IMG/VR virus record: IMGVR_UViG_3300045988_154312
Location: 160,001 to 224,000 of that record
DNA: 64,000 bases
Strand: one strand, 5' to 3'
From: a virus
Shown here: one piece after another, positions 5,359-62,448 of the stretch
How positions within the stretch are numbered: position 1 is the stretch's first letter
How the letters are laid out: each line of letters begins with the position of its first letter
Notes under the pieces: model-generated
What the model saw: only the letters and a program-made list of their open reading frames with translations
Told to the model about the DNA's origin: nothing
Databases searched by the model: none
Made by a program: the position numbers and the translations under genes

Positions 5359-5698
5359 TCCTGTGACCTTCTCATTAATAGTAGGTCATGTTTTATTTCA
5401 TATAAAGCTTTATATGGAATGCTATGAGGTGTATGTTAATGTACTCATAATACCTCCCTTTAATAGATGCTTAACAATCTGATATGTATCTCATAGCATT
5501 CGATATAAGGTTTTATATACCTTAAAGTAAAGCCGTAGACTTAAAAAGTCTTAAGCTGTAGAAGCCGTTGGGACCGGCTCAAAAGAATAAGGACTTTTAG
5601 TCAAACTTCTTAATAAGATGATTTAATATCATCTTTAAAATTGTATAGTCAAATGTTTTATTTGTTATACAAAGTTCCTAACCTTACGGGAGAAGACA

Positions 5699-5717
5699 GC
5701 CCCTCCGGGGCGAAATC
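5699..5717 (+). promoter_or_regulatory. GC hairpin (TCC loop) + GAAATC motif copy
   Basis: GCCCC-TCC-GGGGC-GAAATC, about 200 nt upstream of the ATG at 5918. Confidence 0.5.
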
Positions 5718-5830
5718 TCTCATGGGGCTTTCTGTGTGGAGGTCCCTTTCATACTTTTCTCCTCTCTCTCGCGGTGAGAAACTGCGGGAGATATGAGCGT
5801 TAGATGAGCGTTGACTTATCTAGCGTTGAT

Positions 5831-5868
5831 ATCTCTTGCATGTGTGTTGATGCAAGAGGAGATTTTTT
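5831..5868 (+). terminator. intrinsic terminator inside the 5918 leader (possible attenuator)
   Basis: ATCTCTTGCAT...ATGCAAGAGGA stem followed by GATTTTTT, about 50 nt upstream of the start codon. Confidence 0.6.
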
Positions 5869-5917
5869 CACCACGAGAAGCTCAGTCGTGGTACTTTCAA
5901 AGAAAGGAGACATTTAT

Positions 5918-6625
5918 ATGTCTAAATTTGCAAACGTTGTATGTTATTTGTTCGGCTCCAACTCTAATGGTTGGGCACAAATGTTATCCGCTGTTGTAGA
6001 GGGTGTTCCTGGTGTCCGTGACACCAAACCTGTCAGAATTGAAACAGCAGGTCAATCTTATGTGGGTATGGGCTGTAATGCCGTAGCCCAAATCTTGGAG
6101 TTGTTCGCCAACAAGTCCGTTAATTACGGACAGTTCACTGGTGAAGTAGTGACTAGCGACGCTGTCGCTATCCGCTGTTATTCTATCATGAAAGCTATTA
6201 AAGATGGCTTAACGCCAGCTAAAGTAGCTGACCATGTTATGAAAGAAGCGGATACAGCTGAAGACCGCGAGCAGTTTAAGCGTCTTGCTATGGCAATCAA
6301 AGACTGTCAAAGCCAGGGTGTGCGTCTTCGCATTAGCCGTCTTTCCCAAGAGCACAGTTATGCTCTTGAGGTGCCAGAAGGAGTAGAACTCCAAGCTGGC
6401 GACGTGGTCAAATTTGACCGCGGTGTATCCGAAGACGGTGTCAAACTTGCGTATGGAGTGCAATCCAGCTACGCTTATGAAGTGGCTGAGGTCAATGATG
6501 AGCTTAAAGCTCTCAGACCTAAAAACACTCCAAATAGCAAGCACAGAATGGCGTGCGTTAACGCCACTCTTAACTTGATTCGCGAAATCAAGGCAGAAGA
6601 GGTCTCCGCAGAAGACCTCATCTAA
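5918..6625 (+). CDS. hypothetical protein
   Basis: ATG preceded by AAAGGAGA. 235 aa. The upstream extension to 5804 covers the leader terminator and was rejected. Confidence 0.75.
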   Translation: MSKFANVVCYLFGSNSNGWAQMLSAVVEGVPGVRDTKPVRIETAGQSYVGMGCNAVAQILELFANKSVNYGQFTGEVVTSDAVAIRCYSIMKAIKDGLTPAKVADHVMKEADTAEDREQFKRLAMAIKDCQSQGVRLRISRLSQEHSYALEVPEGVELQAGDVVKFDRGVSEDGVKLAYGVQSSYAYEVAEVNDELKALRPKNTPNSKHRMACVNATLNLIREIKAEEVSAEDLI

Positions 6626-8740: not shown

Positions 8741-9524
8741 ATTCAGCTATTAAAATTCTTAGTCGACACGATAGTATAGTATGGTAGAGATCGTGTCGAT
8801 AGGTTACGAGTGCTAACGAGTTATATGTAGAATTCGTTATTAAGAATAGTGTTATCGATGTAGCTTGCGAAGAGAAATAGTATTCTTTAGAATTCGTAAC
8901 AATATATCTAATGCGTTTGTGTGTCTATCGATATATATCAAGAAAATATATACCGACGTGTGCGAATGGAGTTTACGAAGTGTGGCACGCAATCAATTTT
9001 TATATCTCGTAACGAAGCCGTTTACGGTTCGTATTAGTATTATATATAGCGAAGCGAACAATGTAAGCGGAATGTAACTATATAATATTTAATACGAATT
9101 ATACCAAAGTATTAGAAGTTAGTAAGCGTCTAATAAGTAGGTGGTTTTTTGTTTGGGATCCGCCGTTATCTTAGTATTTCATTTACTAGCTAAGGTATTT
9201 AAAAGTCCCTTGCGTTTATTTTAGTCGAGTTATTATTTAATATATATTATATATAATAATAACGAAGAGCCATTACTGTTAAGAATGGATAGTAGACGAA
9301 ATTGGGAACGGGCCCCAATAATAGTTATTAGATTTTTAATATAATAACGTTAATGGTTCGTCGTGTACGATCCTCTGCGAGTTGTTTATCTTCACAGCAG
9401 ATTAATTACTATTAAGAGTTTGGAGCATTTTTAAAATGGGACAACATTTTGTTAGTATTCTTTGTCTATATTATATATATAAAAAAAAGACCCCCATGGG
9501 GCCGTTATATATTGTTTTGTATCT

Positions 9525-9985: not shown

Positions 9986-10011
9986 AAGTCAGATAATATC
10001 TGGCTTTTTTT
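9986..10011 (+). terminator. intrinsic terminator after element copy 3
   Basis: GTCAGAT-AAT-ATCTGGC followed by T7. Similar A-run/stem/T-run hairpins lie at ~9481-9506, ~9608-9635 and ~9790-9832. Confidence 0.55.
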
Positions 10012-10633
10012 AATTTTGGTGTCGCCTGCGGTATATATAGGAAACAATAAAACATAATATACAGAATATGTATATTTATGAATACGAGCTTTTTTCAAAA
10101 GCGTTCTTCGACCATAGCTTACTCCGAAAAGTTTAAATGAAACGTCGTAAGCGTAGTAGTGACGCGGGTTTTTAATAATTTTATGTATAAGATTATTTAG
10201 GGTTAGGAACGATCGATATAAAAATTGCTCCCTTAACAGTTCTTATTCATCTCTTATATATACTATATATATAATATAATAATATTTATTTTTTTAAATA
10301 GTCCGCCGTCTCCTCACGAGCGCCAACACCAGTTATTTATTGCTTTATATACTATATATATAGGTAAAGCTATGGCTTTGTTCGTGCAGAAGATACGGCT
10401 CTTGGACTATAGGTGATACTGACTATACAGTATGCTCCCTTGGGGGGTGGGGGGAGTCAGTAACACTCTCAAGTTAGTTATTTTTATCTAAAAACTAATA
10501 AAAATCGTTTATGGCTATTAAAATGATCATAAGTCCGCAACACTTTAAAATCTCCCTTTAACAGCTAAAAACTAGTATTTTTTAAAATATCAAGTTGCTT
10601 TTATTTGCTATATTTTAGCCTATTTTCATATTA

Positions 10634-10689
10634 GATGTATTTGGTCCGATGTATTTGGTCCGATGTATTTGGTCCGATGTATTTGGTCA
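10634..10689. repeat. 4 x 14-bp perfect tandem direct repeat (GATGTATTTGGTCC), iteron-like
   Basis: Read directly from the sequence. The last copy ends in A instead of C. Confidence 0.95.
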
Positions 10690-32568: not shown

Positions 32569-33282
32569 ATGGCTTATATATCAATTGGCAAAGAAGAAAG
32601 AATTATTTTATCGACGATATATGAATTTGTAGCACAATATCCAGCATTAAAATATGATTATATTTTGTCCCCTGATCCTAATCGTACTCATATTAGAATC
32701 GAAAAAATTTTCGTATTAGAAGATACAATTACTGTGCATATAGAATATAGAACTATAAACAATAAAGAAATAATAGCATTTGAATTAAACTTAAATACTA
32801 ATACTGTTAATTTTGATAACGATGCAGATCGTGAATTTATTAGAGATATTATGTTTTTACCAAGTGTCGTGAATTATAAATTCATCGAGACATATAAAAG
32901 TAAAGATTTGTCGACTTTTGCTAATAATTTAAGAGAATGCTATTTTTTAAGAATAAGTAAAGGTTATGATCTTTGGTATAAATTTTTGTTTATATTTTCT
33001 GATATGTTTAGCGATATAAACGATGGTGCGCTTTTTAGTATTGATACTATGTTTTTAGCAGAAGAATCAGCTATTAGATTTTTAAAAAACGGATCGATTT
33101 GTATCGTAGATAGTAATCAAACAAATAAATATAATAAAAATATTAGATTTTTGCCATTATATTTAATGGAATATTTAATTCAGGGGTATTATTTAGATGC
33201 AGTACAAATTCAAAGCGATATCGAAGAATTTCGACGACAATCAGAAGAAAATGTTAATAACTGGATCGCTGTTAATGGATAA
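32569..33282 (+). CDS. hypothetical protein
   Basis: 237 aa. Confidence 0.65.
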   Translation: MAYISIGKEERIILSTIYEFVAQYPALKYDYILSPDPNRTHIRIEKIFVLEDTITVHIEYRTINNKEIIAFELNLNTNTVNFDNDADREFIRDIMFLPSVVNYKFIETYKSKDLSTFANNLRECYFLRISKGYDLWYKFLFIFSDMFSDINDGALFSIDTMFLAEESAIRFLKNGSICIVDSNQTNKYNKNIRFLPLYLMEYLIQGYYLDAVQIQSDIEEFRRQSEENVNNWIAVNG

Positions 33283-33583
33283 TAATGAATATTTCATTAA
33301 TAGTATTCCGGTCGATCCAAAAACAATTGGTCAATCGACTGGACTAAGGGATAAACATGATCAAGAAATATTTATTAACGATATCATTCATTTTAAAGCA
33401 AACTATGGTAGTTATTTACTAGAATTAGCTACGGCAACTGTAGGATTTGATAAACTAAATGGTAGATTAGCTGTTAAAATGAATGATAATATATTGGCGT
33501 TATGCGATATGAATTATTCGGATGTTGAGTACGAAGTGCTCGGAAACATATGGGAAGGAAAAATAGATGGACAGAAACTTTAA
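33275..33583 (+). CDS. YopX-like protein (start uncertain)
   Basis: Contains GQSTGLRDKHDQEIFINDII...YEVLGNIWE, which fits the YopX-family pattern. It is a tandem paralog of the next gene. Confidence 0.55.
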   Translation: MDNNEYFINSIPVDPKTIGQSTGLRDKHDQEIFINDIIHFKANYGSYLLELATATVGFDKLNGRLAVKMNDNILALCDMNYSDVEYEVLGNIWEGKIDGQKL

Positions 33584-33950
33584 AGCAAGATGTCTGAAAG
33601 ACAGATCTTGGAAAACTGGTTTTTATTTAATTAAGAAAAAAGAACCATGTATTAAAGATATTAAAAATGTATGGCCAGTACACGAACAAACGATTTGTCA
33701 AAGTACTGGCTATTTAGATTGTAATAAGAAAGAAATCTTTATCGACGATCTAATTAAGTTTAGTGCAGAATTAAACAGCGAAAAAATTGAATTCGAAGAA
33801 ATTCAAGTATTATTTGATCCGGTGTATGCTAAATTAGTATTATTTGCTGGCGATCATTCTTATGATTTTGTCGATCCTAATTATAAAAATCCTCGATACG
33901 AAGTTGTCGGAAATATTTGGGATAAAGTTGCATTGGCAAAGAAGAAGTAA
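33567..33950 (+). CDS. YopX-like protein
   Basis: Contains CQSTGYLDCNKKEIFIDDLI...YEVVGNIWD. Confidence 0.55.
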   Translation: MDRNFKARCLKDRSWKTGFYLIKKKEPCIKDIKNVWPVHEQTICQSTGYLDCNKKEIFIDDLIKFSAELNSEKIEFEEIQVLFDPVYAKLVLFAGDHSYDFVDPNYKNPRYEVVGNIWDKVALAKKK

Positions 33951-33994
33951 TATAATAGGTGTACAAGCTTGTTTTTTTAAAAGAAGGTATACCT

Positions 33995-34345
33995 ATGAAT
34001 TATCACAAACTTTTAGAAGACTGTGACTTTATTAAGGTAAAGCAAACAGTCGAAATCCGTCCTCATGACGAAAACAAAGGCTTTTTTGAATATGTAAATC
34101 ATATTTTTAAAAGTGTAAATAACGGTCATCGTTATGGACCTGCTGTTAAGACTAATATCTTAACGATATATAATCGTGGCAATTATATTGCTTGCGAGAT
34201 GGGCGATCAACGTATCGACATCCGTCGAAATAAGATCGTTATTTATGTCCCTGGTTTAAAAGCTAGTAACGAAGAAACATATAGAAAATATGCTGTATGT
34301 AATATCGGCGTATTAAGCTATATTTACAATTGTAAAAAATACTAG
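33995..34345 (+). CDS. hypothetical protein
   Basis: ATG after GAAGG. 116 aa. Confidence 0.6.
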   Translation: MNYHKLLEDCDFIKVKQTVEIRPHDENKGFFEYVNHIFKSVNNGHRYGPAVKTNILTIYNRGNYIACEMGDQRIDIRRNKIVIYVPGLKASNEETYRKYAVCNIGVLSYIYNCKKY

Positions 34346-34775
34346 CTTTTAAATAATAATTGCGGTATTGAAACGAAAGCTAAGTCGTAAGATATGCCAA
34401 CGTTTACTGAAGGTTATATGTAATAATATAGTCAAGTGCCCAATGGATTGAAACTCATAAGAGAATATAATATCCTAAAAGACCGCAACTTTCATTAGTA
34501 ACAATACTAGCGTGGAAGAAGTAGTGGGCTACCATATCAAAAGATATGGATTAATTAATCCTAGTATAACATGCTAGGCCTAAGACATAGGATGCAAGGT
34601 ATGAGATAGCCTAGACATAGCGTTAATCTTAGGAGAGCCGTCAGCGAAATGTTGCCGGACATTGAAGAATTCGTCGATAATATATTGACGAACGTTAGAA
34701 GACTCGTTAGCAAAAAAGCTAACGACCATTAAGAGAGCGATCATCAATAGCTAAGATGGTCGCTCTTTTTTATTT
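34346..34775 (+). ncRNA. candidate ~430-nt structured non-coding RNA (class unknown)
   Basis: No ORF and locally higher GC. Several helices are visible: TTGCGGT pairs with ACCGCAA at long range; GGATTAATTAATCC; CCTAG..CTAGG; TTCGTC..GACGAA; GTTAGC..GCTAAC. It ends in a 12-bp-stem terminator. Confidence 0.5.
34734..34775 (+). terminator. strong intrinsic terminator
   Basis: AGAGCGATCATC-loop-GATGGTCGCTCT followed by TTTTTTATTTT. Confidence 0.8.
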
Positions 34776-34789
34776 TAGGAGACTAAGTA

Positions 34790-34996
34790 ATGAACTACGA
34801 AACATTAGTAACGATCGGCGTAATTTCTTTAGGATTATTAGCTACGATTTGTTTCGTCGTATATCAAGTATTTGAAACACGACGTATGCGTATTCAATAT
34901 GATAATGGATATACTGAAGCTGAAATTAAAGAAATTTTACATGCCGAAATTGATCCGCTATTAAATATTAATAAAGGAAAAGCTAATACAAAATGA
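34790..34996 (+). CDS. small membrane-anchored protein
   Basis: 68 aa. SD TAGGAGA. N-terminal TM segment. Confidence 0.7.
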   Translation: MNYETLVTIGVISLGLLATICFVVYQVFETRRMRIQYDNGYTEAEIKEILHAEIDPLLNINKGKANTK

Positions 34997-35355
34997 AATA
35001 TTGTATAGAAGATAATTACAACGATTTATTAAATTTATTCTTTGGAATACAAAAAAAACAAGCTGCTGGTACAGTATATATGTTATTGCAAAATGAATTA
35101 TATATTATCGATACAGAATTAATTGCTTGTAGCGACAAAATTTTAATTAATTTTAAAGTATCAGAAGATCAAAAAAAGAAAACTGAAAATTTTAAAACAT
35201 ATGTTTGTATATTATCAAAATCCAATTTTGATAACGGTGTCTTTAAAATCAATATTGAAAATAATGAAGATACCAGTGTCGAATTAGAAATTATTCAATT
35301 ATTAACTGAAAAATTGTATGGTCATAATACAATTAGGGATGCGAAAGGATTTTAG
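34993..35355 (+). CDS. hypothetical protein
   Basis: 120 aa. ATGA overlap. Confidence 0.6.
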   Translation: MKYCIEDNYNDLLNLFFGIQKKQAAGTVYMLLQNELYIIDTELIACSDKILINFKVSEDQKKKTENFKTYVCILSKSNFDNGVFKINIENNEDTSVELEIIQLLTEKLYGHNTIRDAKGF

Positions 35356-35356
35356 T

Positions 35357-35749
35357 ATGAAAATCGACATTAACGATAATTTTAAATGGCTTTTAGAAAG
35401 TTTGTTAAACGAAGGTTATGACGGATTTTTCATCGATGATATGTACGGTGCTATATTCACTAAGAATGGTAAAGTTACAAGTATCGATACTTCTAATTTT
35501 ATCACGAGTAATTTTTACAAAGCTTGTTCTGATTTAGAAGAAAACATTGAATATAGTATTAAAGATTTTATCGAAGGAAAGCTTGATGATAAGAATTTTA
35601 AATTTGGCGATAAAGTTATCATTAGACTTAACTGTGAAGAATTTAACGGTATTTTTATTAGAAAAAGCAATAAAAGTAATGTCGTTGCTACTGAAGAATC
35701 TAAAGGCTTATTATTAATTAGTAATAAAAATATTAGAAAAGCTGATTAA
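35357..35749 (+). CDS. hypothetical protein
   Basis: ATG after AAAGGA, 2 nt past the previous stop. 130 aa. Confidence 0.6.
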   Translation: MKIDINDNFKWLLESLLNEGYDGFFIDDMYGAIFTKNGKVTSIDTSNFITSNFYKACSDLEENIEYSIKDFIEGKLDDKNFKFGDKVIIRLNCEEFNGIFIRKSNKSNVVATEESKGLLLISNKNIRKAD

Positions 35750-35772
35750 TTTTTAATTAATAAGGTGAAAAA

Positions 35773-36285
35773 ATGATCGACTTAAATAAATTAAAAAAAT
35801 GTATCGATTTAGATAATCCAAATAAAGCTTTAGAATATTTAGAGAATAATATAACTAAACATGAATTATACATGTATATTGTTAATAAAATCATCGATCA
35901 AAAAAATAATGATTGTGTTTGTATTCCGATGCCTACAGTCTATAATTTATTTATGTCTTATATTCAGGATAAGTGTAATGAACCTTATAAATTATTAGAA
36001 GAAGTCATTGAAGAAAAACCATTAATCGATGTTAAATTATCTAATAATTTAAAAAATCTTCGTTTGAAAAATCTAGATGATTTTAGAAAAAAATTTATCG
36101 GAACAGAAGATGAACATAGATGGATTATTGATTTTACTAGATATATTATATATATTAATAAAGGCAAAGCAAAACATATTTATATATTAAGTCCTTTTTA
36201 TTCTAAAAAAGAAGACAATATATATGGCATGTTTGTTTATAACGTTAATTTTATCGATAATTTTAAATTCGTAGATGAACGATAA
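35773..36285 (+). CDS. hypothetical protein, tandem duplicate A
   Basis: 170 aa. Its N-terminal ~85 aa are closely similar to the next gene (YIVNKIIDQK(N/D)N(D/E)CV..PMPT(V/M)YNLFMS(Y/F)IQD). Confidence 0.7.
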   Translation: MIDLNKLKKCIDLDNPNKALEYLENNITKHELYMYIVNKIIDQKNNDCVCIPMPTVYNLFMSYIQDKCNEPYKLLEEVIEEKPLIDVKLSNNLKNLRLKNLDDFRKKFIGTEDEHRWIIDFTRYIIYINKGKAKHIYILSPFYSKKEDNIYGMFVYNVNFIDNFKFVDER

Positions 36286-36876: not shown

Positions 36877-37431
36877 TGCGTTTAGTATATAATAATAGAG
36901 TCTATCACATGGTCTATCTAACAGATGCCGTATTAAAAGATGGCACCTATTAAAATGCAAAAGAGCACTCGTGATTTTAATCGTGAGATAAATTTTGCAA
37001 GCTAGTAGGGGTGTTGGGAAACTAGCACCTAGCGGCGGTTTTTACCCGTCCAACAAAGACACTGAATTGCTGGAAACTCCTAAAGCTTGAATAGCTACTG
37101 CGTGATATCTTTTTAAGATATGAGCGTAAATGCAGCGAAAGCAGAAAAAATATTCAAGATGGTATATGGTTAAATCCTAAGTGCTATAATAATGGACAAT
37201 CAGCAGCCAAGCCCGCAAGGGAAGGTTCAACGACTAGACCTCGTGAGGGTCGTACACTATAAGCGTTTGATAGTGGAAGTGGTGTCGCCTAAGTTGTATG
37301 TTATTACGATATGGATAAGATATAGTCTGTGCTCATGTGAAAGCATGAGGTGCACGTAATGGTGCCGGTCAGAAGTAGCGATTTTGATTGAACAATCATC
37401 CTCTCAAAGAAGTATTCTTCGGTTTTATATA

Positions 37432-37460: not shown

Positions 37461-37502
37461 AATAGTATATATCTATTATTATTACGAAAGGAGGTGTGCC
37501 TC

Positions 37503-38594
37503 ATGAATAAAAGTTTTAAAATTAGAATTTATCCTAACCAAGAACAACAAATATTAATTAATAAAACATTTGGTTGTATTCGATATGTTTATAATTATAT
37601 GCTGAATCTTAAACAAAAAGCATATAATATATTTGAACTTAAAATAAATTTTGTAAAAACATCTAGTATTCTTACAAGACTTAAACAACGTAAATCTTGG
37701 CTTTGCGAAGTTGATGCTGTTGCTTTACAGCAATGTTTAAGAGATTTAGATGCTGCATATACTAAATTTTTTAATGGCTCAGGATATCCTAATTTTAAAT
37801 CTAAACGAGGTAAAAACTCCTATCGTACTAATGGTAAAACTATAACTTTAGATCAAAATAATAAAAAAATTAAAATCCCTAAAGTTGGTTGGATTAAATT
37901 TAGAGATAAAACTAATTTTATTGGTTTAATTAAGATTAATAATATTACTATTTCTAAATCTTCTAGCGGAAAATATTTCGCTAGTATTTTAGCCGAAGTC
38001 GATATTACAGCTTTTGCGAAAACCAAGAAAAGCTGTGGTGTCGACTTAGGGTTAAAAGATTTTTGTATTTTGAACAATGGAACTAAATTTGAAAATCCAA
38101 AATTTTTAGTGCGTAACGAACGACGGCTCAGATTATTACAAAAATCTTTAAGTCGTAAAGTATATGGCTCTAAGAATTATGAAAAGGCCAGAATTAAATT
38201 GGCTAAATTTCATGAATATATAGCTAACTGTCGTAAAGATTATTTGCATAAAATATCATTATTTTTAGTTAAGAACTACGATATTATTTGTGCCGAAACT
38301 TTACAAGTTAAAAATATGCTTAAGAATCGCAAACTAGCTAAAGCCATTAGCGATGTTAGTTGGTATGAATTTTGTCGACAATTAGAATATAAATGCTTGT
38401 GGTATGATAAGAAATTTGTACAAATTAATACATATTTTGCATCATCACAACTATGTTCTAATTGTGGATTTAAAAATTCTGACGTTAAAAATCTCGATGT
38501 CCGTGAATGGACTTGCCCAGAATGTGGACAACATCACGATCGAGATATTAACGCAGCAACTAATATTTTAAATCAAGGATTAACTTTAATATAA
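37503..38594 (+). CDS. tnpB: TnpB (IS200/IS605-family RuvC-like RNA-guided nuclease)
   Basis: 363 aa. SD AAAGGAGG. RuvC motifs CGVDLGLKDF and IICAETLQVKNM, zinc ribbon CSNCG..CPECG, and C-terminal HDRDINAATNI. No tnpA gene is nearby. Confidence 0.85.
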   Translation: MNKSFKIRIYPNQEQQILINKTFGCIRYVYNYMLNLKQKAYNIFELKINFVKTSSILTRLKQRKSWLCEVDAVALQQCLRDLDAAYTKFFNGSGYPNFKSKRGKNSYRTNGKTITLDQNNKKIKIPKVGWIKFRDKTNFIGLIKINNITISKSSSGKYFASILAEVDITAFAKTKKSCGVDLGLKDFCILNNGTKFENPKFLVRNERRLRLLQKSLSRKVYGSKNYEKARIKLAKFHEYIANCRKDYLHKISLFLVKNYDIICAETLQVKNMLKNRKLAKAISDVSWYEFCRQLEYKCLWYDKKFVQINTYFASSQLCSNCGFKNSDVKNLDVREWTCPECGQHHDRDINAATNILNQGLTLI

Positions 38595-38789
38595 TTTCAA
38601 TATATAGAACCGTGGGACTCACGGGGATAGCCTACTGTCTTAGTATAAGACGTGCGTAATAAGCATAAGCTTATTATAAACGCAACTATTGGGTAGGAAC
38701 CTCGTCACTTTTAGTGATGAGAGGATGTCAGGTTAGTGAAGGACTGTGTGAAGACGGTAAATCTTATATTATTAATTGGGAGGATAAAG
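38595..38789 (+). ncRNA. putative omega RNA scaffold / intron 3' segment
   Basis: Directly downstream of tnpB. Hairpins include CCGTGGGACTCACGG and CTCGTCACT-TTT-AGTGATGAG. The extent is uncertain. Confidence 0.4.
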
Positions 38790-50747: not shown

Positions 50748-51011
50748 ATGGCAAGAAAAAAAGCAGAAACTATTATCGAAGACAAAGCCAAAGTAACTGA
50801 TATCGAACGTAAAAAACGTATCGAACTCGTAATGGCAAATCTTCGCAAAAAAAACGATGGTATTATTGTCGGAAAGCTCAGTGATCCTGAAGTAAAAGAA
50901 CAGCTTCACTTTGAATTTATTCCGACACCATCGATTAATTTTAATTCTGCGACTGGCGGAGGTATTCCTAAAGGAAATGTTTGTATTATCGCCGGTGCAG
51001 AAGATTCGGGT
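50748..51011 (+). CDS. recA: RecA-like recombinase, exon 1
   Basis: SD TAGGAGG. It ends inside the Walker A motif (IIAGAEDSG|), and the in-frame continuation is intron sequence. Confidence 0.8.
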
Positions 51012-51224
51012 AAAATATTTGCCCCTACAATTAGTGATAATTGTATGCAAATTCTGTGATATGCTGGAAAGCCCTATGAGGTAATCAGCAGGCAGCTTAA
51101 TCGCGCCCCAACGACTATCCGTAAGGAGTACGCTACAGAAGTAGCGGAAGCGCAGAACATCTTAATTAAGATGATGATATAGTCTACTCCCCTAATAAAT
51201 ATCGGGAAACCGAGGGTATGAAGG
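51012..51224 (+). mobile_element. ORF-less group I intron (213 nt) in the recA-like gene
   Basis: U at -1 (51011) and a terminal G (51224). An IGS-like GCCC at 51021 can pair with exon CGGGU. P/Q/R/S-like blocks are ATATGCTGGAAAGC, AATCAGCAGGC, CAACGACTATCC and GATATAGTCTAC. Splicing restores GAEDSGKTSLILE. Confidence 0.8.
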
Positions 51225-52136
51225 AAAACAAGTTTAATTCTTGAAACAATCGGTAAGATGCACCGTGAAAACTCAGAAGGTCATTTTGCTTTATGGCTTG
51301 AAAGCGAAGCATCACTAAACTTAGATTATATGGTAAATCAGTTTGGTATCGATCCAGAACGATTTTTCTTTATTCAGTTCGATCGAAACCATTCGGCCGA
51401 ACAATGTTTAGATCAAGCTGAATCATTATTGCAAACTGGCGTATTCGATTTATTCTGTATCAATACATTAAAAGCATTAATTCCAGAATCTGAAATGAAT
51501 AAATCGATGGAACAAATTAATGTTGGTGCCGCTGCGCGAATGAATAGTCGGGCAATGGGTAAATTCGTACCGTTGATTAAACAATATAAAACGGCAATGG
51601 TATTAATCCAACATTTAACGACTAACATCGGTGGTTTTAGTATGTATGGCGACAATTTAATTTTAGCTGGCGGTCGTGCTATTCGTACGGCTAGCATACT
51701 AACTGTCGAAATGCGTAAAGCTAGTATATTGGATACTGATCCTATCGGTAAAGAAGACGGTATTAAAATTAATTGTAAGATTACTAAAAACCATTGTATT
51801 CCGAGAGAATTCCCGTATCGTAAATTTACGTATTATGCAATCTTTGGTGAAGGCATCGAACAAATTCTTAGTACACTCGATGAATTAATCGATATGGGTA
51901 TTATTCATAAAGCTGGTGCTTGGATGCAACAGCTTGATCCAGAGACTGGAGAGATTGTCGACAAATGGAATGGCCGTAATGCCTTTAGAGAAGACATGAA
52001 AGCCAATCCTGATAAACTTGAAAAGCTTAAATCTTTAGTTCACGGTACCTTCGAAACTCTTAGCGAAGAAGAGGTTGTCGAAATTAAAGAACAAGAAAAA
52101 TTAGCCGAAGAAGCTGAAGAGGCTACTAATGGCTAA
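51225..52136 (+). CDS. recA: RecA-like recombinase, exon 2
   Basis: Continues KTSLILETIGK..., with RecA core motifs (LFCINTLKALIP, QINVGAAARMNSRAM, VLIQHLT). The spliced product is about 392 aa. Confidence 0.8.
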   Translation, partial: KTSLILETIGKMHRENSEGHFALWLESEASLNLDYMVNQFGIDPERFFFIQFDRNHSAEQCLDQAESLLQTGVFDLFCINTLKALIPESEMNKSMEQINVGAAARMNSRAMGKFVPLIKQYKTAMVLIQHLTTNIGGFSMYGDNLILAGGRAIRTASILTVEMRKASILDTDPIGKEDGIKINCKITKNHCIPREFPYRKFTYYAIFGEGIEQILSTLDELIDMGIIHKAGAWMQQLDPETGEIVDKWNGRNAFREDMKANPDKLEKLKSLVHGTFETLSEEEVVEIKEQEKLAEEAEEATNG

Positions 52137-57146: not shown

Positions 57147-57159
57147 TATTATTAAGAGT

Positions 57160-57188
57160 TTGCAAATACCTTTTTTATCCTGTAATAT
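57160..57188 (+). promoter_or_regulatory. possible SigA-type promoter for the intron ORF
   Basis: TTGCAA, a 17-nt spacer, then TAATAT. Confidence 0.35.
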
Positions 57189-57222
57189 ATAGTTAAATAC
57201 TAGTTATTTACAGGAGTTTAAC

Positions 57223-58407
57223 ATGGAAAACAATAAAAATAAATGGATATTCTATACATGTAAAAATTGTAGCTCGGAATTTAAACGTATGAGATGCGAC
57301 GTTAATTTTCGAAAAAAGAAAAATCCAGACTTTGAACCATTATTTTGTTCAAAAAAATGCATGCATGAATTTGCTCATAAAAACATTGTATATCATGACT
57401 ACATCTGTCTTGAATGTGGAAATATGTTTCAAAAAAGTGAGCGAGAAATTAAAAATGCTAATAAAAAAAATCAGCCTATAAAATTCTGTTCTCGAGAATG
57501 TAAAGATAAACATTGGGGACGTAATCAGTTAAATGTAAAATGTGATTGCTGTGGGAAAGATTTTAAGGTACAACGAAAATTTAAAAACAAAAAACATTAT
57601 TTTTGTTCTTCTAATTGTTGTAAAAAATTTAATGAAGATAATAATCTTCGAGGAACAACTATTGATTTAATTTGTAAAAAATGCGGAAAGACTTTTACAG
57701 TTACAAATAGTTATCTTAAAAAACAATTAAAAAGAAAACAAAATGTAGTATATTGTTCATTAGAATGTAAAAATTCTGATCATGAAAATTTTAAAAAAAA
57801 ATATGATTACAAATTAGAAAGTTTAAAATGTGATTATTGTGGCAAAAGAATAGAAAAAGGTTTAAATCGATTAAAAGATTATTTTCTTGGTAAAAATAAA
57901 CACATTTATTGTTCTAATGAATGTGCCACTTTGGCAAAGAAAAAACAAATCGAAGTTTCTTGTGACTATTGTCATAAAAAATATACTATAAATGAATATC
58001 GTTTTAAAAACAATAATAAAAATTTTTGTTGTTTAGAGCATAAGAAAGCATTTGTTCAAAAAGAAAAAGAAACGTATGCAGAAATATCGCATTATTTAAG
58101 AACATCTAAAAAATATAATACATGGAGGCTTTCATGTATGGAACGAGATAATTTTAAATGTGTAGAATGTCATGAAGATTCTAACTTAATTGTTCATCAT
58201 ATTAATGAATTATATAATATTGTAAAAAAATATAATTTTATTTTAGATGACATATTAAATAGTTTTGAATTTAATGACATAAATAATGGTATGACATTAT
58301 GTAAAGAATGTCATAATAAAAAACATCCATGGTTAAAAGATGAAAAAGGAAGATTTGTAAATAGCATAGCCGCGTCATTATCAACAGATTCAGAAGATAA
58401 TGACTAG
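57223..58407 (+). CDS. HNH homing endonuclease with six tandem zinc-ribbon repeats
   Basis: C-terminal motif CVECHEDSNLIVHHIN...NNGMTLCKECHNKKH. The N-terminal ~270 aa hold six repeats of C-x2-C-x(15-25)-(F/Y)C(S/C)xxC. Confidence 0.85.
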   Translation: MENNKNKWIFYTCKNCSSEFKRMRCDVNFRKKKNPDFEPLFCSKKCMHEFAHKNIVYHDYICLECGNMFQKSEREIKNANKKNQPIKFCSRECKDKHWGRNQLNVKCDCCGKDFKVQRKFKNKKHYFCSSNCCKKFNEDNNLRGTTIDLICKKCGKTFTVTNSYLKKQLKRKQNVVYCSLECKNSDHENFKKKYDYKLESLKCDYCGKRIEKGLNRLKDYFLGKNKHIYCSNECATLAKKKQIEVSCDYCHKKYTINEYRFKNNNKNFCCLEHKKAFVQKEKETYAEISHYLRTSKKYNTWRLSCMERDNFKCVECHEDSNLIVHHINELYNIVKKYNFILDDILNSFEFNDINNGMTLCKECHNKKHPWLKDEKGRFVNSIAASLSTDSEDND

Positions 58408-58660
58408 CTTTGGGGAAAAAATCTGGAAGGCTAAGTTGTATTAATATACAATATGCTAATCAGAGGTGAAGGTTTAATAAAATTAAACCAGCCGCAACGC
58501 GTAGTAGGTGAAAAGATATAATCCTACCAAGAGGCCCCAACCCTATGAATCTTTTATAAAGGTGAAAAGGTACGCTAAACTGGATCGGAAAAGACCGATC
58601 GATGAAAATGAAGGAAACTTCCAGAGCTGTATGTAAAAATATACAGGATAATAACATATG

Positions 58661-60479: not shown

Positions 60480-62448
60480 ATGTCTAAGTTATTAGAAGGT
60501 CTAAATGAACAACAATTGCCTGTAGCAAAACGCATTAACGGAAAATTTATCGTTAATGCTAGTGCCAGGCAGTGGTAAGACTGCAACTATCGTTACTCGT
60601 ACTGCTTATATGATCGAACAAGGTATCGATCCTGCCAATATTTTAATGTTTACATTTACTCGTAAAGCAGCACTTGAAATGAAAGAACGCATGATTGCTA
60701 AAATCGGTGCAATTGCTAAACCAGTTACAGTATGTACATATCATTCTTTCAGTTCTATGTTATTAAGAAAATTTTCCTATCTTATTGGATATGAAAATAA
60801 CTTCACAGTATGTGATGCTGACGAGAGTGAAAAAATCATTAAAGATATTTGTGGTTCTAATATTAAATTAAAAGACGTTGCGATCATTATGATCGGTCAA
60901 TGGAAAACACAAGGTTTAACATATACTGAAGCTAAGCAAGATAAAGAAATCCAAGCTAATTTTACATTAGCTGCCGATGTCTATGAGAAATACCAACGTA
61001 AATTAGAATCCGAAAACATGATGGATTTTAATGATCTAACTATGTTAGCTGCTCGTATTTTGAATAACTATACAGAAGTGCAACAATACGTTTGGAATAA
61101 ATATAAATACGTTATCGTCGACGAAGCCCAAGATAGCGCGGTTTCTAACTGGTATTTCATTAACAAGATTGCTGAAGGCAATGAAAACTTATGCATGGTT
61201 ATGGATAATAATCAAAGTATTTATGCATTCCGTGGTGCTGAAATTGATTTCATCTGTAAGCAAATTGTCGACGGTGGTTTCGATCAATACGTGTTAGAGC
61301 AAAATTATCGCTCTACTAGCAATATTGTTAATGCAAGTAATGCCGTTGTCGATAATAATCCAGCTATTATTAAAAAAGAAGCTTTTAGTAAACAAGATGC
61401 TGGTACTAAAATTTACGTTAAGCAAGTTAATGATCAAACTGCTGAATCTGAATATGTCGTAAGAAGTATTCATGCCGCAGTTAAAGGCGGTCTTAACTAT
61501 AAAGATATTTGTATTTTAGCTAGAACTAAACGTCAATTTGAAATTTTTGAAAAAACTTTTTTAAAATGTGCAATTCCTTATACATTAGTAAGTGGTTTAC
61601 CATTTTGTAATCGTAAAGAAATTAAAGATATTCTAGCTGTATTAAGATTGCTGTTAAATAATAAAGATGAAGAAGCATTAAAACGTATTATTAATATTCC
61701 TAAATGTGGTATTGGCGATGCATCCTTTAATAAATTAATGTTAGAATGTGGTGAATCTAGCGTTATTGAAAAAGCTAAGAAAAATGTAATGCTATTAAAA
61801 GGCAAGGCTAAAAAAGGCGCCGAAACATTCTTGAAAAAGTTTGGTAGAGTCGTAAAATTTGCTCAAGAAAATGTCGAACCAGCATTAATTATCGAATATT
61901 ATTTAAATGAATTTGATTATAAAAATTATTTGATCGAGTCCTATCGCTCTGAAGAAGACAAAGAAAAAAATGACGAAGACAAAACTCAAAACGAAGCTTG
62001 GACTCGTCAAAAGAATGTCGATGAGTTAATTCATATTGCGGAAGAATATGATTGTGTAAGCGATCTATTAGAATCGACATTAGGTTTCGACGAGGAATCT
62101 GTCGAAGAAGAAGAACGTGATGCTGTTAGCCTTATGACTATTCATGCATCTAAAGGTCTTGAATTCGATATGGTATTTATCGTTGGCGGTAATGAAGGAT
62201 TATTCCCTCACCAAAATTCTTTAAACGACATTGCTCAGATTCAAGAAGAACGTCGTCTATGGTATGTAGCTATGACTCGAGCTAAAAGCATTCTAAGCAT
62301 TTCTTACTTCAATTTATATAAACAATTTGGTCAAACTAAAGTATTAAAAGGTAGTCGCTTTATCGAAGAGATTCCGTCTGAATTTAAAAAAGAAAGTTTA
62401 ATGGAATCTAAAAAAGTTAAAGTTGAGAATATTGATAATTTATTTTAA
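60480..62448 (+). CDS. UvrD/PcrA-like SF1 helicase; needs a +1 frame change near 60567
   Basis: The ATG at 60480 (SD GAAAGGAGAGG) encodes MSKLLEGLNEQQLPVAKRINGKFIVNASA and stops at 60576-60578. The next frame carries GSGKT from 60556 on, plus the motifs VIVDEAQD, QNYRS, MTIHASKGLEFD and LWYVAMTRA. Confidence 0.8.

Follow-up and report, generated by a model that had tools for sequence, protein, structure and literature searches.

An orphan group I intron core lacking P1, with a small conserved RNA element and a terminator downstream of it, in an intergenic region of a jumbo phage

The viral record IMGVR_UViG_3300045988_154312 of IMG/VR was analysed over a stretch of 64,000 nucleotides (nt; positions 160,001 to 224,000 of the record, hereafter the window and numbered from its first letter), in which the region 34346-34775 forms the spacer between the stop codon of a gene of 116 amino acids (aa; 33995-34345) and the Shine-Dalgarno sequence (SD) and ATG (34790) of a gene of 68 aa. 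A preliminary description, made from the letters of the window, had asked whether this region of ~430 nt encodes an unclassified large RNA. We find that the region is a composite and not one RNA, being made up of an orphan, P1-less group I intron core (module A), a small unclassified conserved element (module B) and a terminator. Module A is the P3-P9 core of a clade-specific group I intron lineage; it keeps the fold of such a core, is without P1 and without a host gene, and is present in some related phages and absent from others. The region as a whole is probably a composite non-coding tail, in which a 5'-truncated, immobilised and non-splicing group I copy is followed by module B and the terminator. 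The suggestion of a decayed intron was essentially right for the 5' 195 nt.

The composite nature of the region is seen from its relatives. The window belongs to a clade of AT-rich (~28% GC) jumbo phages of ~230 kb from human-microbiome metagenomes, whose UvrD-like helicase is at most 35% identical to homologues in phages of Bacillus, Staphylococcus, Listeria and other hosts. The upstream 116-aa gene recovered 31 IMG/VR loci, in which the spacer that follows it falls into two size classes. The form of 156-170 nt (19 of the 31 loci) holds only the counterpart of 34557-34661 and a terminator, while the extra 5' part of the 373-430-nt form is the counterpart of 34356-34550. In the 19 short loci an identical upstream stop codon is followed directly by module B without module A, and module A is accessory, because the module-A pattern found no match anywhere in the full-length short-form genomes. 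A second sub-clade (L053, L054, L063, L067, L072, L073, L092, L100 and L105) carries module A at another locus (L073 ~10000-10640, minus strand), a ~620-nt hairpin-rich stretch free of open reading frames (ORFs) that reaches from a 53-aa gene to an SSB-like gene. This second locus begins after an extended -10-like TGTATAAT and joins the module-A unit to ~300 nt of other, unrelated structured sequence, which found no match in Rfam. With a metagenome scan the tally of distinct copies rose to 39, of which 14 combine a 5' hairpin with the L073-type 3' flank, 10 join that hairpin to module B, 13 have module B but no hairpin, and 2 are unrelated chance matches. Because relatives carry the modules independently, the supposed single unit of ~430 nt is a chain of four separable parts.

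Module A has the following parts. Its score is the self-score of R1, a covariance model built from 20 module-A sequences.

34356..34550, + strand: module A, group I intron core from P3 to P9 without P1 or P2; R1 self-score 226 bits
34360..34366, + strand: P3 5' strand UUGCGGU, pairing with ACCGCAA at 34482-34488; a UA pair becomes GC in 4 sequences
34371-34375 with 34401-34405, + strand: P4, with both sides changed in 4 of 5 pairs
within 34371..34405, + strand: J4/5 AAA and J5/4 CAA, read off the sequence
within 34371..34405, + strand: P5 region GCUAAG...UAUGC, a motif kept in the UvrD and AAA introns
34406..34437, + strand: P6 hairpin ACU-GAA-GGU UAUAU...AUAUA GUC-A-AGU, whose lower stem covaries between paralogs
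34438..34442, + strand: P7 5' strand GCCCA, whose partner UGGGC lies at 34525-34529; makes a pseudoknot with P3; 98% paired
34445..34475, + strand: P7.1/P7.2-type hairpin, GGAU...AUCC with inner CUC/GAG; a GC pair becomes AU in 6 sequences
34489..34518, + strand: P8 CUUUC/GGAAG with a variable extension hairpin, aligning to P8 of the recA intron
between P8 and P7', + strand: J8/7 AAGUAGU, read off the sequence
34532..34549, + strand: P9 hairpin, with loop AAAA in the window and GAAA in relatives

The helices of module A covary across the 20 distinct sequences. With a hand-curated structure, 96% of the cells were paired, as against 38-44% when the 3' partners were slid. Both sides of a pair had changed in 44 cells, compared with 13.8 in shuffles, and 9 pairs were so affected; P3, P4, P7, P7.1/7.2 and P9 each hold pairs altered on both strands. 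For P3, UUGCGG/CCGCAA turns into UGGCGG/CCGCCA in relatives; the long-range TTGCGGT/ACCGCAA helix of the preliminary description is real, its coordinates having been ~8-10 nt off. The lower stem of P6 occurs as ACU/AGU, GGU/GCC and ACC/GGC among paralogs. P7, which had been missed, exists in a non-canonical and covarying form: 11 copies have U-A as its middle pair (column 89/209) and 5 have C-G, across several sub-lineages, the 4 U-G cells being an alignment offset. The pair G34438-C34529, with G on the 5' strand, would have the orientation of the guanosine-binding pair, and is G-C in 18 of the 20 sequences. The P5 region resembles the core of the 11-nt GAAA-tetraloop receptor (CCUAAG...UAUGG). 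The P7.1/P7.2 arrangement is typical of subgroup IA phage introns, and GAAUAUAAU of this hairpin is common to module A and bona fide introns.

Other assignments were tried and given up. A first candidate for P7, ACU 34406-34408 with AGU 34522-34524, was dropped when paralogous introns proved to covary with the local partner, so that the stem belongs to P6. Reading UUGCGG/CCGCAA as P4 with GACUA as the P7 5' strand was also discarded, the GACUA-like word being unconserved and the helix being aligned by R1 to P3. Two AUUGAAAC words considered as a Racr-like mimic of a CRISPR (clustered regularly interspaced short palindromic repeats) repeat (Rfam E 2-3) sit in J3/4 and in the P7.1 loop.

Homology to introns that split genes was found in both directions. 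R1 gave 43-53 bits (E~1e-11) on the UvrD introns of L129, L116, L124, L112, L126, L122, L130 and L138. In L129, an insertion of 344 nt separates the GAGSG codons of the UvrD Walker A motif from the KT codons; U is the last letter of the 5' exon and G that of the insertion, and the frame is whole again once the insertion is taken out: ...NAGAGSGKTSTIV... Within the window, R1 detected a divergent second copy at 58406-58601 (20 bits) and a weak full-length match at 51048-51207. The former is the core of a ~1.5-kb intron (~57148-58660) in an AAA+ ATPase gene, with an HNH ORF (57223-58407) inside; exons 1 and 2 match positions 4-71 and 74-130 of Pfam AAA, respectively, and an uninterrupted AAA+ gene of 533 aa is present in L129. 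The latter corresponds to the recA intron 51002-51206 (Rfam RF00028, 66.2 bits), which splits a recA-like gene into exons 50748-~51040 and ~51230-52136, matching positions 3-66 and 78-261 of Pfam RecA. On this intron R1 placed its outer helix on P3, the next hairpin on P8, and then J8/7-P7' and P9; the core helix order P3-P9 is collinear with that of the Rfam-annotated intron, which has two small hairpins at the same place, between P7 and P3'. Conversely, a model built from the UvrD-type and AAA-type cores of relatives only (R3) matched the window at 34356-34541 with 47.3 bits (E~1e-10), its second-best match after the AAA intron itself. RF00028 covered J8/7-P7'-P9 of the L073 homologue, weakly (19 bits, E 0.026). 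The likeness to the P3/P4 region of the window's group I introns, pointed out in the preliminary description, was thus a genuine lead, borne out by the homology of the 5' part.

Two observations concern the same introns. The UvrD-like helicase of the window has its ATG at 60481 and a stop at ~60578, with the main ORF (60556-62448) in another frame; this apparent frameshift in the Walker A codons falls at the exact site of the UvrD intron in relatives, and an assembly error or damage to a homing site might explain it. In a scan of bacterial genomes for the P4-P5 motif, one match was obtained, on the 3.9-kb contig DBFNNF010000358.1 of a Lactobacillus johnsonii metagenome-assembled genome (L167 3218-3252; CUGGAAGGCUAAGU...AUAUGCUAAUCAG), in which P4-P5 alone fits R3.

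Rfam says little about this subtype. No match at E<=10 was found in 34200-34900, OLE, ROOL, GOLLD and raiA included, and RF00028 had none on the window copy at E<=10, its gathering score of 50 bits being out of reach. However, RF00028 also finds nothing on the bona fide AAA-type and UvrD-type introns, so its silence is uninformative for this subtype. The preliminary description had named an Rfam match to a known family as what would speak against a new RNA; this yardstick would have misled, because RF00028 is blind to the subtype. Canonical introns can be overlooked as well: whole-window Rfam scans (gathering and E-value) returned no group I intron, whereas local scans gave two above gathering, and we conclude that the speed filters of the whole-window scans lose these two introns (66-75 bits locally) in this AT-rich sequence. 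In this DNA, then, a missing Rfam match does not speak against a known family.

The window copy has several properties that make splicing implausible. Its P3 and the stop codon are only 14 nt apart, whereas P1 and P2 take up ~65 nt ahead of P3 in the bona fide UvrD intron, with a U.G pair in P1 (GGU|AUUGA / UCAUUGCC). Ahead of P3, the intergenic copies carry one P2-like hairpin (GGCAAG...CUUGC) at most; this hairpin is kept in L017, L012 and L073 and absent in the window and in the L022-type and L029-type copies, and no conserved P1 or internal guide pairing was found in any intergenic copy. A stretch of ~25 nt between AAUAA repeats is missing from the window but not from L017, its closest relative, with which it shares 94% identity in module A. 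Because P1, the guide and the P2-like hairpin are missing, a 5' splice site would not be selectable in the usual manner in the window copy. The flanking ORFs are complete, and the upstream TAG is identical whether or not an allele carries module A; no placement of the indel against the short-form alleles makes it end in G. A precise homing-type insertion was accordingly rejected, the L012 versus L015 indel being unable to end in G, so that a simple comparison of intron-plus and intron-less alleles fails. A P1 built by pairing GUUUA of the 5' hairpin loop to the exon word UAAAU, seen in L012, was rejected too, for the loops differ between copies. The 5' flank of the unit ends in U and the unit itself in ...AUAGGG in both genomic contexts (AUAUGG in the window); the last G would be a candidate for the terminal guanosine (omega G) of a 3' splice site. 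Signs of decay in the window copy are the AAAA of L9, the lack of the J6/7 GCAAC that is present in real introns, and the lack of P2. The window copy is probably unable to splice.

These observations can be arranged as follows. The intron lineage that supplies genuine self-splicing introns to UvrD-like and AAA+ ATPase genes would also have left module A as an immobilised, truncated copy in a 3' untranslated tail, rather than as a trans-acting RNA. The P2-like hairpin of the window copy was lost by the ~25-nt deletion between the AAUAA repeats. No terminator was found between the 33995-34345 gene and the RNA region, and module A would be transcribed by read-through from that gene and retained as folded RNA; the transcript would run on through module B and two window-specific hairpins and end at the terminator 34734-34772. 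If module A has a role, it may be a stabilising one. We favour such a stranded, 5'-truncated intron copy because the window copy shows both decay and dispensability.

Several points weigh against a stranded copy of this kind. At least 12 independent compensatory events were counted by eye, indicating that the fold is actively maintained, and compensation is seen inside the hairpin-less lineages as well (P4 GAAUC/GAUUC in L022 versus GAACC/GGUUC in L023). A dead and dispensable relic should decay; this fold is kept, so that some activity or structural role may remain. The history of the RNA alleles differs from that of the adjacent gene: relative to L023, the adjacent gene differs at 10% of third codon positions while identity is 77% in module A and 64% in module B, and relative to L029, the adjacent gene is 76% identical and the RNA modules are 85-86% identical. 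The module-A unit has group-I-like boundaries in two unrelated genomic contexts, and the L073-type phages hold a further hairpin upstream of the P2-like hairpin, so that some copies might splice from a non-coding transcript. In addition, co-transcription and the 3' end of the transcript are predictions, and this account does not cover module B. Even so, we consider residual activity of module A unlikely.

The maintained fold is the starting point for a different explanation, in which module A still works as a ribozyme and is retained for some task different from cis-splicing, which would make it a domesticated group I ribozyme. It might hydrolyse the RNA at the core-terminal G (~34549) and so release a module-B RNA, or carry out GIR1-like branching or capping. 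The full P3-P9 core, including the P7 G-C pair, is kept by compensation in lineages without P1 and P2, the unit stands upstream of a structured RNA at two different loci, and the size of ~190 nt and the missing P1 recall GIR1. By contrast, module A is accessory and many close relatives are without it, L9 of the window has gone from GAAA to AAAA, J6/7 is missing or reduced, and no P10- or P15-like pairing was found by eye; we hold this putative activity to be improbable. Its extension to module A and ~39 distinct relatives, as a group I-derived ribozyme family without P1 or exons that performs a non-splicing reaction, appears less probable again. If it were true, 3'-end hydrolysis or branching would process or cap module B as well as the L073-type structured RNA upstream of the SSB gene, and the family would be the bacterial-virus counterpart of the eukaryotic GIR1 lariat-capping ribozyme.

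Treating the whole 430 nt as one new class of large structured non-coding RNA, comparable to OLE, ROOL, GOLLD or raiA, would account for the strong folding, the lack of an Rfam match and the conservation in relatives. The plus strand of the region has a minimum free energy of -118.5 kcal/mol as against -86.0 +/- 4.7 for dinucleotide shuffles (z = -6.9; z = -4.3 for the minus strand), in agreement with the highly paired character noted before. The region is also ORF-free and GC-enriched as described, with no plus-strand ORF of at least 30 aa between the 33995-34345 stop and the ATG at 34790 (the ORFs listed within it are two mechanical ones on the minus strand) and with a GC content of 0.35-0.40 at 34400-34800 against 0.21-0.33 in the flanks. 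However, A occurs with other 3' partners, B occurs without A, the insert between module B and the terminator is confined to the window, and module A is homologous to bona fide introns. We therefore regard one large RNA as very improbable, and only the 105-nt element 34557-34661 stays unclassified. Even less credible is an IStron relic or a TnpB-associated omega RNA, which was suggested by a tnpB gene 2.7 kb downstream, by a group I intron just upstream of tnpB, and by a 9-mer (GATAGCCTA) common to the region and the 3' side of tnpB. The 9-mer does occur at 34605-34613 and 38626-38634, but its tie to the tnpB region is one of chance: by our own estimate, a comparison of 430 nt with 2 x 64 kb should yield ~200 common 9-mers at random, and relatives do not keep this one, having GAGAAGCCUUAG at that place. 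R1 scored just 7-9 bits on the tnpB 3' region and on the IStron-type intron (below 9 bits), which lies beside tnpB and belongs to the canonical subtype, and blastn of the region against the window returned chance words only and no repeats. Omega RNAs are encoded at, or overlap, the 3' end of tnpB and the right end of the transposon, whereas the region lies 2.7 kb upstream of a tnpB that has a 3' region of its own, and the 9-mer had been the sole link to a TnpB guide-like RNA.

The remainder of the region and its upstream neighbour comprise the following features.

33995..34345, + strand: upstream gene, 116 aa, no family match; its TAG (34343-34345) stands directly before the RNA region
34557..34661, + strand: module B, conserved three-hairpin element of 105 nt, in 31/31 related loci with or without module A
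34560-34578, + strand: hairpin B1, with changes on both sides
34579-34633, + strand: B2, long stem CCUAAGA/UCUUAGG with an internal hairpin, changes on both sides
34638-34658, + strand: hairpin B3 with a GAAAU loop, changes on both sides
34664..34729, + strand: insert with two hairpins (34670-34692 and 34704-34725), in the window only, flanked by CAUU repeats
34734..34772, + strand: intrinsic terminator whose 12-bp stem closes a 9-nt loop and precedes a U run, conserved with compensatory changes

Module B is a candidate for a covariation-supported, unclassified conserved RNA element. Its B2 stem is found as CCUAAG/CUUAGG, CCUGCA/UGCAGG, CCUAUAC/GUAUAGG and CCUACAC/GUGUAGG. It is single-copy, with no paralogs in the window or in 30 loci, and Rfam held no match for it. 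A peptide ORF within it (MLGLRHRMQGMR) was discarded as not conserved in relatives. The element travels with the upstream gene even where the downstream gene or the terminator differs. The insert 34664-34729 is absent from all relatives and has no exact match in IMG/VR. The terminator that the preliminary description placed at the end of the region is confirmed, with a 12-bp stem AGAGCGAUCAUC (34734-34745) / GAUGGUCGCUCU (34755-34766) followed by a T run at 34766-34771; the SD TAGGAGA (34776-34782) precedes the ATG. An automated terminator scan had overlooked 34734-34772 only because of its 9-nt loop. In L023, L026 and L027 a different hairpin takes the position of the terminator. In L029 and L031 (~5625-5950) there is no terminator after module B, and more than 300 nt of further ORF-poor sequence is found instead, including CCGGACUGACGAGUCUGG (with a hammerhead-like CUGANGA word) and UAAGAUAUCAGCAGGGG.

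A conserved structured element stands right in front of a strong terminator and of the SD that serves the next gene, which raises the possibility that module B and the terminator form a riboswitch- or attenuator-type leader controlling read-through into gene 34790, with module A incidental. B2 has a 5' strand (CCUA/CCUG) with two possible partners, a local one (UAGG/CAGG) and a long-range one, and both track it. However, the local alternative pairing has an exception in L031, and conservation of an anti-terminator pairing is lacking, which weakens the case for an attenuator. In L023, L026 and L027 the gene that comes after the element and a terminator is a different one, no terminator follows the element in L029 and L031, and module B moves with the upstream rather than the downstream gene. 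A leader function is, in our judgement, quite doubtful.

Searches of the surroundings yielded few further assignments. Megablast and blastn of 33000-36000 against INPHARED gave no known-phage match, and a search for transfer RNA and transfer-messenger RNA found none. Among the neighbouring proteins, Pfam and PHROGs returned YopX for two upstream genes and nothing else; these are tandem YopX-family paralogs (33197-33583 and 33567-33950) just upstream of the 116-aa gene. Gene content between the YopX paralogs and the 68-aa gene varies among relatives, with an insert of up to ~3 kb in contig 3300008328_000005. Farther downstream, a canonical group I intron at 36963-37349 (RF00028, 74.6 bits) lies directly upstream of tnpB (37494-38594), the product of which (366 aa) has HTH_OrfB_IS605, OrfB_IS605 and Cas12f1-like TNB domains; intron and tnpB together look like an IStron-like unit inside a jumbo phage. 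The sole whole-window E-value match in Rfam was an OTKONC RNA (RF03053) at 9289-9459 (138.5 bits, E 6e-22), just below the gathering score of 141.4; no mention of the OTKONC name was found in the literature searched.

Taken together, a striking signal of an unclassified large RNA is accounted for by group I introns. Two blind spots of annotation come to light: the single group I model of Rfam misses a whole subtype that splits UvrD and AAA+ genes in human-microbiome jumbo phages, and whole-window scans overlooked two canonical introns that local scans recover. What is left is an exon-less, P1-less intron core whose fold is upheld through compensatory evolution and which is shuffled from phage to phage as an accessory module. 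If an activity is behind the upkeep of the fold, this would be a rare domesticated group I ribozyme outside eukaryotes; if there is none, it would be a well-resolved snapshot of intron stranding and decay in phage spacers.

Compared with known systems, module A comes closest in layout to the phage subgroup IA introns (T4 td, Twort orf142 and SPO1-like), with which it shares the order P3, P4-J4/5-P5-J5/4, P6, P7, extra hairpin, P3', P8, J8/7, P7' and P9, as well as the P3/P7 pseudoknot and a G-C pair at the end of P7 that faces J6/7. Its homologues include the U|...G|-bounded UvrD and AAA+ introns, one of which holds an HNH homing endonuclease gene. Unlike the subgroup IA introns, module A is without P1 and an internal guide, its window copy is without P2, and it is intergenic with no host gene; its P7 is non-canonical (GYCCA/UGGRC, not GACUA/UAGUC) and its J6/7 is reduced. 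GIR1 of the Didymium and Naegleria twin-ribozyme introns is likewise a group I-derived core of ~190 nt without P1 that stands upstream of another RNA, and its fold too is conserved despite having no role in splicing, although module A is not known to be active. GIR1 differs in lying inside a larger intron in eukaryotic ribosomal DNA, upstream of a homing endonuclease messenger RNA, and in its rearranged core, which carries out a branching reaction; of the features P10, P15 and DP2/DP2.1 of this core, none was identified in module A by eye, and Rfam gave no ribozyme-family match. IStrons such as CdISt1, in which a group I intron is fused to an IS200/IS605 element, resemble module A in being group I RNAs able to sit outside essential genes, but module A has no adjacent tnpA or tnpB, belongs to another intron subtype and shows no significant similarity to the IStron-like unit of the window. 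Other jumbo phages carry a mean of 18.5 short group I introns per genome, ~206 nt on average (PMC12880540). Among them, the gut 'Jug' phages are jumbo phages of the human microbiome with many group I introns of ~200 nt and with free-standing or intron-borne HNH endonucleases (PMC12880540). The 'Jug' introns are described as interrupting genes that include terL, nrdD and the DNA polymerase gene (PMC12880540), whereas module A, from a different phage clade, interrupts none.

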